Positions 31,288 through 56,086 of a stretch of 64,000 nt of DNA are shown piece after piece. The DNA is from a virus. Positions within the stretch are counted from its first letter, which is position 1. Every line of letters starts with the position of its first letter. The position numbers were made by a program, and so were the translations under genes. The DNA lies in the IMG/VR virus record IMGVR_UViG_3300048074_000120, positions 32,001-96,000 of that record; one strand, given 5' to 3'. Below the pieces are notes generated by a model. The model was not told the origin of the DNA, searched no databases, and saw nothing but the letters and a program-made list of their open reading frames with translations.

Positions 31288-32724
31288 ATGACTCTCACAC
31301 CAACGAAGAAGGGTTGGGCGGCGCAAGACAAGACGTCCAACCTCACGTTGGCCCGTGCCTATGTGAAACAGTACGCCCCGTACATGAGCTCAACTCTGTA
31401 CGGGCTTGTACCTTCACCGGTGCCCGGGCTAACCGCACTTGTGCACGGACCCATGGCTGTCTCGGAGCGACTGGTCCTGTACTACGACCCAGATTGGGTT
31501 GAAACAGTCAGCATGCTCATCGTGGCCACAGGGCTCATGCACGAATGCATGCACGCCCAGCTGCTCCACATCAAGCGAGGAAAGGCATTCGCAGACTCCA
31601 AACGGTTCAACCGCGCTGGTGACCTTTTCATCAACAGCTCCATGCGCCGCCAGCAAAAGCAGGTCAGGGTCACTAAGGGGACTACAAGCTCAAGCGGCGT
31701 CATTACCGAGGACATGTGGGAATTCCCTGACTGGGCACTCATGCCAGAGCGGTATGGGTTTCCAGAAGGGCTCACGGCTGACGAGTACTACGCGCTGCTC
31801 GAGCAATTCGAGAATAAAGCGAAAGGGCAAAGCCAAGAAAAAGGATCAGGGAAGGGCCAATCCAAAGACGGGCAAGACCCGTCCGAAGACGGCGAACCCA
31901 GCCCCGGCGAGGGCGACTCAGGGAAAGGAAAGATACTTGCGGGCTGCTGCGGCGGCATTGCGGGTAACCCCGTCAGCAAGGAACTAGAAAAAGCCCATGA
32001 CGATGAGAAAGGACGATCTGAAGCCGACTGCAAAGGCATCGCCCTAGAAACCGCTCGGGCCATCAAGAAGCACATGGAATCGCAACAGGGGCGTGGAACT
32101 CTTCCAGGCTCCTGGGCAGAGCTCGTTGACATCAGCGAAGCTCAGTTCGAAGTACCTTGGCGCACCAAACTGGCAAACCTAGCAAGGCTTGCCATCGGGC
32201 GGGTAAGAACCGGCGGGCTCGACTACAGCATGCGCCGACCATCGAAACGCTCCTACCTGCGTGGAATCAACCTGCCTGGACTGATTGCCTATGACCCGAA
32301 CCTCATGTTCATAGTGGACAGCTCAGGATCCATGGGCACCAGTCAACTGGCAGACGCCCTAAAAGTGATGTCCGACGTCATGGTGCAAACAGGCATTCAA
32401 CGCGCGTGGTTTCTCGACGCGGACACCGAGGCAAAGCGAGCCCCTATCCTGGTAAGCCCACAAGACCTCAGGTCTCTTGAATTCCTTGGACGAGGTGGAA
32501 CTGACTTTCGATCAGTCATCAACTACATCGACACGGACTTCATGCCTAGGCCAAACATGGTCATCTACCTCACGGATGGCGCAGGTACCGCACCAGAGCG
32601 CTGCCCGAATGGGATTCAGTTCATCTGGTGCATCGTGCCTACCCGGTTCAAAGCAAAGCCCGCGGACTGGGGTGAACTCATTGAGCTCGATGACTTGGTC
32701 GTTGATGAGGAGGCTCTTGAGTGA
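31288..32724 (+). CDS. metallopeptidase-like + vWA protein (DUF2201 type)
   Basis: LMHECMH (HExxH), VDSSGSMG MIDAS, GRGGTDF, YLTDG. Confidence 0.9.
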   Translation: MTLTPTKKGWAAQDKTSNLTLARAYVKQYAPYMSSTLYGLVPSPVPGLTALVHGPMAVSERLVLYYDPDWVETVSMLIVATGLMHECMHAQLLHIKRGKAFADSKRFNRAGDLFINSSMRRQQKQVRVTKGTTSSSGVITEDMWEFPDWALMPERYGFPEGLTADEYYALLEQFENKAKGQSQEKGSGKGQSKDGQDPSEDGEPSPGEGDSGKGKILAGCCGGIAGNPVSKELEKAHDDEKGRSEADCKGIALETARAIKKHMESQQGRGTLPGSWAELVDISEAQFEVPWRTKLANLARLAIGRVRTGGLDYSMRRPSKRSYLRGINLPGLIAYDPNLMFIVDSSGSMGTSQLADALKVMSDVMVQTGIQRAWFLDADTEAKRAPILVSPQDLRSLEFLGRGGTDFRSVINYIDTDFMPRPNMVIYLTDGAGTAPERCPNGIQFIWCIVPTRFKAKPADWGELIELDDLVVDEEALE

Positions 32725-54170: not shown

Positions 54171-54631
54171 TCCACCTCACGCTTCCCTGGCTGCCACCTT
54201 CCGTCAACGACCTCTATAAGCCCGTGATCAAGGGCACTGGCTTCAAGAAGATAGCCATCCAGACACTCTCGGCAGCCGGAAGGAAGTTCAAAAAGGAGGC
54301 CATTGCCTACCTAGTCAAAAACTGCCAGCCCCAAATGCGTTGGTTCAAACCCAACGGGACCTACGTCATGTTCACCCTGTTCGGGGTACAAAATCTAGAG
54401 AACAAGGGCTGGCCAAAAACGGCCAAGGCTAGGTATAAGAAGGCCGACGTCACCAACCGAATGAAGGTCCTCGAAGACGTCATCGCTGAGGCCAGTGCCG
54501 TAGACGACTCCGCCTACCTACTGTCCATCTGCCAAAAACGGTCCAGCGATACGGCCGTCACTGACGTTTGGATCTGGAACCTAGACGAGGAGGGTTGCCC
54601 TTTCTATGCTGCCGCTAGCAGCCTTCGATAA
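54167..54631 (+). CDS. rusA: RusA-like Holliday junction resolvase
   Basis: LPWLPPSVNDLY, ADVTNRMKVLED, VDDS. Confidence 0.8.
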   Translation: MIHLTLPWLPPSVNDLYKPVIKGTGFKKIAIQTLSAAGRKFKKEAIAYLVKNCQPQMRWFKPNGTYVMFTLFGVQNLENKGWPKTAKARYKKADVTNRMKVLEDVIAEASAVDDSAYLLSICQKRSSDTAVTDVWIWNLDEEGCPFYAAASSLR

Positions 54632-54995
54632 GTACAACTTCTCAGAGCTGTACCAACTGTGCATTCGGGCAGAACTCCCAGTGCTACCAACAACCCCCAG
54701 GGAAAAGCTCATTGCGTACCTGACCGGGGATGAAGAACCGCCCGAACTCGAGGAAGACGACCATCCCATTCATTCTTGGAGAAACGCCATCATTGGCTTT
54801 CTGCTCGATCAGTGGAAGAAGATGGCAACTCAAATCACGTGCCCAGCCAAAGCACTCAAAGACCCCATCAACCCCAATCCAAGGCCGTGCTTCGGCTGCG
54901 TCGATACGCAAGTGATCACGTGCCTTGTCCAAAACCACAAAGCTGAAGCACTCATCTCACCCTATCGTTTACTAAGGAGACCCGTAACAAAATGA
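54606..54995 (+). CDS. HeH/Rho-N-like domain protein with Cys-rich C-terminus
   Basis: FDKYNFSELYQLCIRAELP...REKLIAYL; GAGGAG RBS. Confidence 0.6.
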   Translation: MLPLAAFDKYNFSELYQLCIRAELPVLPTTPREKLIAYLTGDEEPPELEEDDHPIHSWRNAIIGFLLDQWKKMATQITCPAKALKDPINPNPRPCFGCVDTQVITCLVQNHKAEALISPYRLLRRPVTK

Positions 54996-55663
54996 CCACA
55001 GCGAAACTGAGCTTGGAAACCGCCCCCACCACCCTCGAAGACATGATGAAGATCGGTAGGTTCAACCTCCGACTTCTCGCGCAGGAGTTTGGCCTGTTCA
55101 ACACCGAGGAATCAAAGGCAGCCTTCATGCAGCTATCAAACGAGGGTCAGGCAAAAGCCCTCCTCGATGCTGCTACAAAACTCCGCGGGGGCGGCAAAGG
55201 CAAAGCCACTGCTGCAACCGGGACCGGTGCCGCCCAGCGCACCCCCGCCACCGGAAAGGGTGCCGGCACCGGCAGAAAGCCAGCCACCAAAACGGAAGAA
55301 CCCCCAGAGGAGACGCCCGCGGACCCGGCCGCAGCCAGGGCTCCGGCGACCGCAGCAGCCGCTGGCGCAGCCAACACCGTAAAGCTCATGCAAGGCATTG
55401 CCGCTGCTTGCGAAGGCATCAAGGGCGCCGTCGAGACCACGGACGGCTCCATCGTGGCCGTACAGAGCACGCTCGAAGCCATCAATATGGCCCTGTGGTT
55501 CAACACCGCCCTGACCGTGCTTCAGATCGAACAAACCATCCAGATTGACCGGGCCGAAATCATCGAGATGGCCATGCAGGAAATCCCGGGCCTCAAGGAT
55601 GCCCTCAGCGCCGCCCAGCCCGCCAGTGGCGAAGAGGAGTACGCCGAAGAGGGAAACGCGTAA
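54992..55663 (+). CDS. HeH-like protein with Ala/Thr/Pro linker; candidate -1 frameshift extension to 55851
   Basis: RFNLRLLAQEFGL; ends G GGA AAC GCG TAA. Confidence 0.75.
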   Translation: MTTAKLSLETAPTTLEDMMKIGRFNLRLLAQEFGLFNTEESKAAFMQLSNEGQAKALLDAATKLRGGGKGKATAATGTGAAQRTPATGKGAGTGRKPATKTEEPPEETPADPAAARAPATAAAAGAANTVKLMQGIAAACEGIKGAVETTDGSIVAVQSTLEAINMALWFNTALTVLQIEQTIQIDRAEIIEMAMQEIPGLKDALSAAQPASGEEEYAEEGNA

Positions 55664-55851
55664 AGGTCGAGACTTGGCCCAGCTGCATCCGTGCCAGGAT
55701 TCAAGACACGATTGAAATCGACGAAGGCTACCTACTGAGCCTCGACTACAATCAACTTCGAATCCTGGCCATGCAGCTCGGCGTGCTGGTCCAAGATGAC
55801 CCGAGTCTCGACCTATTGCGACAGAGAATTCGCCAGTGCCAACTGGTGTAA
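55657..55851 (+). CDS. start-less 64-aa ORF (HeH-like), reachable by -1 frameshift
   Basis: RVKVETWPSCIRARIQDTIEIDEGYLLSLDYNQLRILAMQLGVLVQDDPSLDLLRQRIRQCQLV; no ATG/GTG/TTG before the conserved helix. Confidence 0.6.
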   Translation, partial: RVKVETWPSCIRARIQDTIEIDEGYLLSLDYNQLRILAMQLGVLVQDDPSLDLLRQRIRQCQLV

Positions 55852-55891
55852 GGCACTGCGAAATTGCACTCAAGTACGCAGTAAGGTCAAC

Positions 55892-56086
55892 ATGAGTGCA
55901 TCGTGCAAAGGGGAACTGATCTGGCAGGGCATGCGATGGTGCTGCGTCAACTGCGGCTGCGAAAGCACGTATTGGGAGACTACCCATCAGCCCATCCAGT
56001 CCAAAGCAGATCACTTCCTAGGGTGTCTGCTCGTGCTGGCTGAAAGCTCGACGGCGCCAACTGCGACTACAAGCTCCTCAATGTAG
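55892..56086 (+). CDS. small Cys-rich protein (64 aa)
   Basis: TAAGGT RBS before 55892; C...CCVNCGC...H. Confidence 0.55.
   Translation: MSASCKGELIWQGMRWCCVNCGCESTYWETTHQPIQSKADHFLGCLLVLAESSTAPTATTSSSM

Follow-up and report, generated by a model that had tools for sequence, protein, structure and literature searches.

Anatomy of the gene and its -1 frame

We analyzed 64,000 nucleotides (nt) of a viral genome (IMG/VR record IMGVR_UViG_3300048074_000120, positions 32,001 to 96,000; hereafter, the window) carrying a gene whose 3' end is probably decoded in two reading frames by a programmed -1 ribosomal frameshift. The 0-frame open reading frame (ORF) is located on the plus strand (54992..55663), encodes 223 amino acids (aa), and ends with GAA GAG GGA AAC GCG TAA. 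The GGA and AAC codons and the G that precedes them form the slippery heptamer G_GGA_AAC (55651..55657, plus strand), which is in the X_XXY_YYZ phase and would allow re-pairing from GGA to GGG in the P site and from AAC to AAA in the A site. The 0-frame stop codon, TAA (55661..55663, plus strand), is located one codon past the heptamer. In the -1 frame, no stop codon occurs between 55549 and the TAA codon at 55849-55851, and the extension of this frame past the heptamer (55657..55851, plus strand) comprises 64 codons and that TAA. The extension begins with RVKVETWPSC... and continues into a predicted helix-extended loop-helix (HeH/SAP-like) core (55723..55842, plus strand; model residues 25 to 64). 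A slip at the heptamer is predicted to generate a product of 286 aa (222 + 64) versus 223 aa for the unshifted product. No ATG, GTG, or TTG codon is present in the -1 frame of the window from the upstream -1 stop codon to codon 41 of the extension. The first such codon is located at position 41, inside the HeH core, both in the window and in its nearest relatives.

The 223-aa protein is composed of an N-terminal HeH-like helical domain (about residues 14 to 65), a disordered basic linker rich in Gly, Ala, Pro, and Lys that contains a conserved RTPxTGK motif, and a C-terminal part in which an alpha-helical hairpin (about residues 119 to 182) is followed by an acidic tail ending with EEGNA. Two types of candidate stimulators flank the heptamer. 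An unconserved Shine-Dalgarno (SD)-like sequence, GAGGAG (55634..55639, plus strand), is located 11 nt on its 5' side. A small, weak hairpin, GGUCGA-GAC-UUGGCC (55665..55679, plus strand), begins 7 nt on its 3' side and overlaps the conserved V-E-x-W-P codons; RNAalifold predicts a larger irregular hairpin (55666..55707, plus strand) as an alternative. The original prediction, made from the sequence of the window, described this locus as a dnaX-style -1 frameshift adding a HeH domain. Its account of the anatomy was confirmed upon re-reading of the sequence, including the end of the 223-aa ORF, the in-phase heptamer, the positions of the SD-like sequence and of the hairpin, the 64 codons open in the -1 frame, and the absence of a start codon ahead of the conserved helix. 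The coordinates also give the two predicted product lengths that it had put forward.

The heptamer by itself occurs at the chance level, with 20 copies in both strands of the 188,971-bp genome compared to about 20-22 expected. An apparent scarcity of GGGAAAC in the window (2 copies versus 8.3 expected) was discarded in view of this genome-wide count. Two further long ORFs (300 aa and 209 aa), located outside the window at G000:C1 110225 and 122610, contain GGGAAAC in the X_XXY_YYZ phase. What exceeds chance is the conservation of the heptamer jointly with the -1 ORF across homologues, not the heptamer alone.

Conservation and selection at the heptamer

Five close homologues of the 223-aa protein (220 to 226 aa, 46-75% identity) were each traced to their contigs. 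All five displayed the identical GGGAAAC sequence, followed by one further codon, a stop codon, and a -1 ORF reading GKRVxVE(T/V)WPxC...LRILA.Q.GVLVQDDPSLDLL... In this close set, identity was 76-97% for the extension versus 52-84% for the main ORF. The comparison covered a total of 19 distinct homologous loci with available DNA, namely, the close set, distant members, and loci recovered by cassette-pattern scans, reaching about 25-30% identity in the main ORF. In all 19 loci, the heptamer was present in phase (G_GGA_AAC in 12 and G_GGA_AAA in 7), the 0-frame stop codon was located 0 or 1 codon past it, and a -1 ORF of 66-68 codons with a HeH-like core followed. Residues V6, W9, and P10 of the extension are invariant, and E7, C12, and D19 are nearly so. 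The cassette was intact even in P0142, which matches the family profile at E = 2e-4, and in L011, the main ORF is 29% identical to that of the window and the extension 71% identical. Among the more unusual members, L015 (281 aa; on the reverse strand of a 187,857-bp IMG/VR contig, with its heptamer at position 1879 after reversal of the locus) owes its extra size to a very long Asp/Glu-rich linker insertion and still ends with ...AAKGK, followed by G_GGA_AAA TAG and the conserved extension.

A profile search of 1.84 billion representatives identified 154 family representatives at E <= 0.001, mostly of 190-240 aa; the family comprises at least 154 clusters at 50% identity. Gly-Asn or Gly-Lys was found within the last five residues of 107 of the 154 representatives; random internal windows of the same proteins gave an expected number of 4.1 (mean) and a maximum of 10. 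No family was found in Pfam, PHROG, or NCBIfam for the main ORF or for the extension, and scanning 81 members against domain libraries returned low-complexity matches only. Neither the locus, the ORF, nor the extension had a blastn or tblastn match among 50,697 GenBank phage records, and no family member was found among those records. A single-protein search of IMG/VR for related loci did not detect any relative. Pattern scans could not be based on the wide alignments A5 and A6, in which the sequences were too diverse. In 185,579 prokaryote genomes, the sole match to the cassette pattern (L027, 1545-1573; a metagenome-assembled genome of Candidatus Colwellbacteria, in the Candidate Phyla Radiation) was judged to be due to chance, the bases being inside an unrelated ORF (...VGKRIVVEDWPVRE, followed by a stop codon).

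The codons at the site are constrained beyond the amino acids that they specify. GGA is used at the heptamer in 19 of 19 loci, compared to 51 of 313 Gly codons (16%) elsewhere in these ORFs, in which it is the least-used Gly codon. The preceding codon is GAG, CAG, AAG, ACG, CCG, GCG, or TCG, thereby specifying seven different amino acids (E, Q, K, T, P, A, and S) and always ending in G. As judged from these alignments, the choice of GGA and the G-ending preceding codon are demanded by the X_XXY_YYZ rule and not by protein coding. For the -1 ORF of the close set, variable alignment columns were distributed 23/8/42 over the three codon positions, and pairwise codon differences were in a synonymous-to-nonsynonymous ratio of 285:142 in the -1 frame compared to 88:364 and 35:411 in the other two frames. 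The same bias was observed for codons 6-20, located 5' of any internal start, for which the synonymous fraction was 0.37 versus 0.17 and 0.15 in the other frames. These substitution patterns indicate that the -1 ORF is under purifying selection.

In a single assembly, an indel error would have the appearance of a one-base change of frame separating two conserved coding parts, and a pseudogenized fusion gene could also look like this. However, the arrangement recurs in 19 loci that were assembled independently and come from different samples, and both the main ORF and the extension are under purifying selection. The independent DNA runs X3 and X4 displayed zero differences across the site. The RNA-library contigs X5 (55611-55982) and X7 (55498-55726) were colinear across it, with no indel, although rare variants do not show in contigs and some DNA may be present in RNA libraries. 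In addition, no in-frame version was detected among 122-391-aa homologue matches, by an extension-based search for longer fused proteins, or by scanning the extension profile over the 154 representatives. Together, the 19 independent assemblies, the DNA runs, and the RNA-library contigs exclude a sequencing indel, and the probability that the arrangement results from artefact or gene decay is negligible.

Access to the -1 ORF is restricted on both sides of the heptamer. On the 5' side, a stop codon closes the -1 frame at a distance of 1 codon in L025, 3 codons in L018, and 5 codons in L002, L003, L005, and L007; on the 3' side, the 0-frame stop codon directly abuts the heptamer in L011, L012, L013, and L015. 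Since stop codons are this close in both frames, ribosomes can change frame only on the heptamer. Initiation within the -1 frame upstream of the conserved segment is also restricted, as 16 of the 19 loci do not contain any ATG, GTG, or TTG from the upstream -1 stop codon to W9. The remaining three contain unconserved GTG codons located 81-156 nt upstream.

These observations bear on the possibility that a distinct small gene encodes the HeH segment, with ribosomes starting at an internal or noncanonical codon either independently or by termination coupling. Gene callers propose ORFs of 44-52 aa starting at an internal ATG or GTG in 13 relatives, and ATA, ATC, or CTG-type codons are sporadically present near the stop codon. 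Moreover, an in-frame Met or Val is present at about codons 17-23 of the extension in some relatives, so that a short HeH-only product could start there independently; this point also counts against frameshifting. However, the positions of the internal Met or Val vary (roughly 17, 21, 22, and 23), and the codon-41 start of the window and its nearest relatives would cut into the HeH core. Profile searching for a full-length stand-alone extension ORF returned none, the 44-52-aa caller fragments being the only matches. The segment located 5' of the internal starts is conserved as protein, as indicated by its invariant residues and by its synonymous fraction, and a separate gene would leave the nucleotide-level conservation of the heptamer unexplained. 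We consider this explanation improbable.

Transcriptional slippage or RNA editing at GGGAAA(C/A), adding or removing one base in a subset of the mRNAs, would yield the same two products as ribosomal frameshifting. Transcriptional slippage is known in some insertion sequence (IS) elements and in Thermus dnaX (reviewed in PMC5009743). Nevertheless, runs of three G and three to four A residues are far below the known lengths of slippage tracts, and the indel-free contigs X5 and X7 argue against it within the limit stated above for rare variants. In addition, the strict X_XXY_YYZ phasing, which includes the G of the preceding codon, fits slippage of tandem tRNAs, whereas polymerase slippage does not require any phasing. 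The proximity of the 0-frame stop codon, always 0-1 codon away, raises the further possibility of another type of recoding at the same place, such as a slip involving the P site only at the stop codon or a +2 shift or hop over it, since "shifty stops" are known to promote single-tRNA slippage (PMC5009743). Against this, both halves of the heptamer, including AAA(C/A), are conserved in 19 of 19 loci, which is the signature of two-tRNA slippage. Both of these explanations are very improbable.

Stimulators, appended domain, and proposed mechanism

Further observations weigh against programmed frameshifting at this site. SD-like 4-5-mers were present at positions -20 to -5 in 8 of the 19 loci and absent in 11; their distribution follows that of a Glu-rich tail in one subfamily, and the SD-like element looks like a by-product of that tail. 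For the 30 nt located 3' of the heptamer, minimum free energies ranged from -1.8 to -11.9 kcal/mol, and single-sequence fold z-scores ranged from -2.07 to +0.94, most of them near 0. The small hairpin has a 4-pair core in nearly all loci and displayed no compensatory changes, performing no better than shuffled sequences, and the larger RNAalifold hairpin displayed no covariation beyond that of shuffles. Heptamers of this type are weak in Escherichia coli (PMC4066793), which may not be the host of the phage. Concerning the appended domain, the extension had no match to Pfam SAP, HeH, or Rho_N at E <= 1, and the fold Z scores were low (3-5), as expected for a 40-residue domain. Finally, the 286-aa trans-frame protein is itself a prediction.

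The sole conserved flanking feature is the 0-frame stop codon 0-1 codon downstream of the heptamer. The invariant GTC...TGGCC bases could be an RNA element or could merely encode the V..WP residues, two possibilities that the data cannot separate. ARAGORN did not detect any tRNA gene, as a candidate modulator of the shift, in the whole 188,971-bp genome. The motifs G_GG.A_AA.C and G_GG.A_AA.A are of low efficiency in E. coli, yet they are among those used by IS1 and IS3 elements (PMC4066793). G_GGA_AAC has also been listed for the g-t genes of the haloarchaeal virus HCTV-1 (PMC5009743) and predicted for the tail chaperone of Burkholderia phage KL1 (PMC3483164). Since the heptamer is recognized but of low efficiency in E. 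coli, we infer that the shift is infrequent and that the long isoform is a minor product.

On this evidence, we estimate at about 0.86 the probability that a programmed -1 ribosomal frameshift occurs at G_GGA_AAC and produces a 286-aa isoform; the four rival explanations, even when combined, are unlikely. The original prediction is therefore retained for the frameshift and for the HeH domain that it would add, including its expectations that homologues would have the heptamer, would not be in-frame fusions, and would not provide the second ORF with a conserved start of its own. Its dnaX-style part was not upheld. The combination of SD and hairpin stimulators described for dnaX and IS911 is not conserved here, the SD-like sequence being present in less than half of the loci and the hairpins being weak and devoid of covariation. 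In addition, the shift would lengthen the product, which corresponds to the logic of lambda G/GT and IS3/IS911.

The AlphaFold2 (AF2) model of the extension had a mean predicted local distance difference test (pLDDT) score of 65, with 74-85 in the core, and contained helices at residues 25-30, 33-43, and 53-64. The top VIA-align match was the N-terminal domain of Rho (1a62; Z of 5.2, root mean square deviation [rmsd] of 1.7 Å, 44 residues aligned). Further matches included the C-terminal domain of T4 endonuclease VII and, at Z of 3-4.6, SAP domains (DEK, Hcc-1, Ku70, SLX4, FAN1, and PIAS1) and LEM domains (emerin and LAP2); overall, Z scores were 3-5.2 and rmsd values 1.3-2.5. Foldseek did not return any match for this model in the PDB at E <= 0.001, and the extension had no significant sequence match in the PDB. 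The ESM Atlas was uninformative, the best lead being a SAP cluster with a score of 0.83. Since the list of structure matches is coherent despite the low Z scores, assignment of the modeled extension to the HeH type appears reasonable, in agreement with the domain originally claimed. In the model, helix 33-43, the extended loop, and helix 53-64 superpose on known members of the HeH, SAP, LEM, and Rho-N group. The differences are the lack of a significant profile match to SAP, HeH, or Rho_N and the low Z scores, and nucleic acid binding is putative.

Alignment of profiles with hhalign revealed a weak match between residues 24-50 of the extension and residues 14-40 of the N terminus of the same protein (E of 1.8e-4, probability of 48%). 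According to this match, each end of the long isoform may bear a HeH-type module. The AF2 model obtained for the 223-aa protein was poor (pLDDT of 43.5), and a VIA search with it returned generic helical hairpins only.

In the proposed mechanism, most ribosomes would translate GGA AAC GCG and terminate at the TAA codon at 55661-55663, producing the 223-aa protein. A minority would slip back by one base on G_GGA_AAC, tRNA-Gly moving from GGA to GGG and tRNA-Asn from AAC to AAA, and would then translate 64 codons in the -1 frame. The resulting 286-aa isoform would end with the conserved V-E-x-W-P-x-C segment followed by the HeH/SAP-like domain. Slippage would be of low efficiency, in the context of the absence of any conserved stimulator in the loci compared, and the adjacent 0-frame stop codon may help it. 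The short form would contain one N-terminal HeH-like domain and a putatively oligomerizing helical hairpin, and the long form would contain a second, C-terminal HeH domain. Frameshifting would thereby fix the ratio of one-HeH to two-HeH subunits, as it sets the ratio of the chaperone forms in the case of lambda G/GT. A functional model based on such analogies, in which the two isoforms bind DNA as architectural or adaptor proteins of a recombination/replication module at a ratio set by the frameshift, is tentative and would more probably need revision than prove correct.

The tail assembly chaperone system G/GT of phage lambda (G_GGA_AAG), which has homologues in tailed phages, resembles this locus in several respects. 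A -1 slip on G_GGA_AAN near the 3' end of a phage gene would generate a minority long isoform consisting of the whole short protein and a C-terminal binding domain reached only by frameshifting. The device is kept across the family despite divergence, and a strong stimulator is not required. In contrast, the G/GT pair is located directly upstream of the tape measure gene in the tail module, whereas the gene studied here belongs to a recombination/replication block. The proteins are also unrelated, and the added domain is HeH/SAP-like rather than the tail-tube-binding T domain. Production of a longer fusion protein from an X_XXY_YYZ heptamer is likewise shared with OrfA-OrfAB of IS3/IS911, for which stimulators have been demonstrated (an upstream SD sequence and a downstream stem-loop or pseudoknot), neither of which is conserved here. 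The second ORF is, in addition, a 64-codon domain in the window and a catalytic transposase domain in the IS elements. The likeness to E. coli dnaX involves a -1 shift in a DNA metabolism gene and, in the window, an SD-like sequence 11 nt on the 5' side and a hairpin 7 nt on the 3' side. However, dnaX has A_AAA_AAG, a strong stem-loop, a functional SD sequence, and a shift of about 50% that leads to a shorter product, whereas the present gene would have a longer product (+64 codons), a weak heptamer, and an unconserved SD-like element and hairpin.

The mechanism is classical; novelty lies in the gene family, in its place in the genome, and in the appended domain. In the SEA-PHAGES set, 2397 of 2476 joined genes are tail assembly chaperones (PMC10885494). 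The conservation observed here is as deep as that of G/GT, but the gene belongs to a DNA recombination/replication module. Gene callers systematically miss about 64 conserved codons throughout the family, leaving 200-400-nt "gaps" after the gene or 44-52-aa fragments. The family also offers a clean natural system in which to study how -1 frameshifting on G_GGA_AAC/A proceeds beside a stop codon when stimulators are scarce. A broader interpretation comes close to even odds, falling slightly short of them. According to it, the C-terminal HeH domain of this unannotated family would in no member be encoded in frame or be provided with a start codon of its own, an anciently conserved G_GGA_AAN shift being the only route to it. 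The family would then be a nonstructural counterpart of G/GT in which the HeH ratio is essential in a DNA-handling assembly and the shift operates with no classical stimulator, possibly with help from the adjoining stop codon.

Genomic setting

The phage genome is complete (188,971 bp, 55% GC, single contig, CheckV 100%), and the phage is present in bioreactor samples. Several relatives were found on contigs of 186-190 kb from bioreactor, wastewater, and other metagenomes, indicating that they form a coherent group of large uncultivated phages. The gene is the last of a plus-strand block encoding, in order, a DnaB-like helicase, a DnaG-type primase, a family A DNA polymerase (PolA), a UvsX/RecA-like recombinase, a Cas4-like exonuclease, a RusA resolvase, and a 129-aa ORF. 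The neighbors from DnaB to RusA justify the label of replication/recombination block, as originally proposed. Downstream of the gene, a small Cys-rich ORF is followed by a convergent gene encoding a GDSL domain.

The 129-aa ORF (54606..54995, plus strand) ends with a stop codon that overlaps the start codon of the 223-aa ORF (ATGA), and the order RusA, ~125-aa ORF, and family gene is kept in relatives. In P0044, P0091, and other members of 340-358 aa, its equivalent and the family gene form a single in-frame fusion, with 43-49% identity between the 129-aa ORF and the N-terminal regions of P0091 and P0044. Because of these fusions, the sequence comparison suggests that the two proteins work together. 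The 129-aa protein starts with another HeH/SAP-like motif (..SELYQLC..A.L.V.P.TP..KLIAYL) and also contains a Cys cluster (CPAK...CFGCVD...C). The 129-aa ORF, the N-terminal domain of the 223-aa protein, and the extension point to a set of HeH-type proteins in large uncultivated phages.

Directly after the extension, the small Cys-rich ORF (55892-56086, plus strand) encodes a zinc-ribbon-like protein (MSASCKGE...W.C..CG) that did not match any Pfam-type or NCBIfam family. This ORF is kept at the same position in L001, L005, L006, L007, L009, and L011. It is replaced in L002 (3860-4324) and L004 (3949-4422) by an HNH endonuclease gene adjoining the 3' end of the extension, and L002 harbors a second HNH gene upstream (2115-2630).

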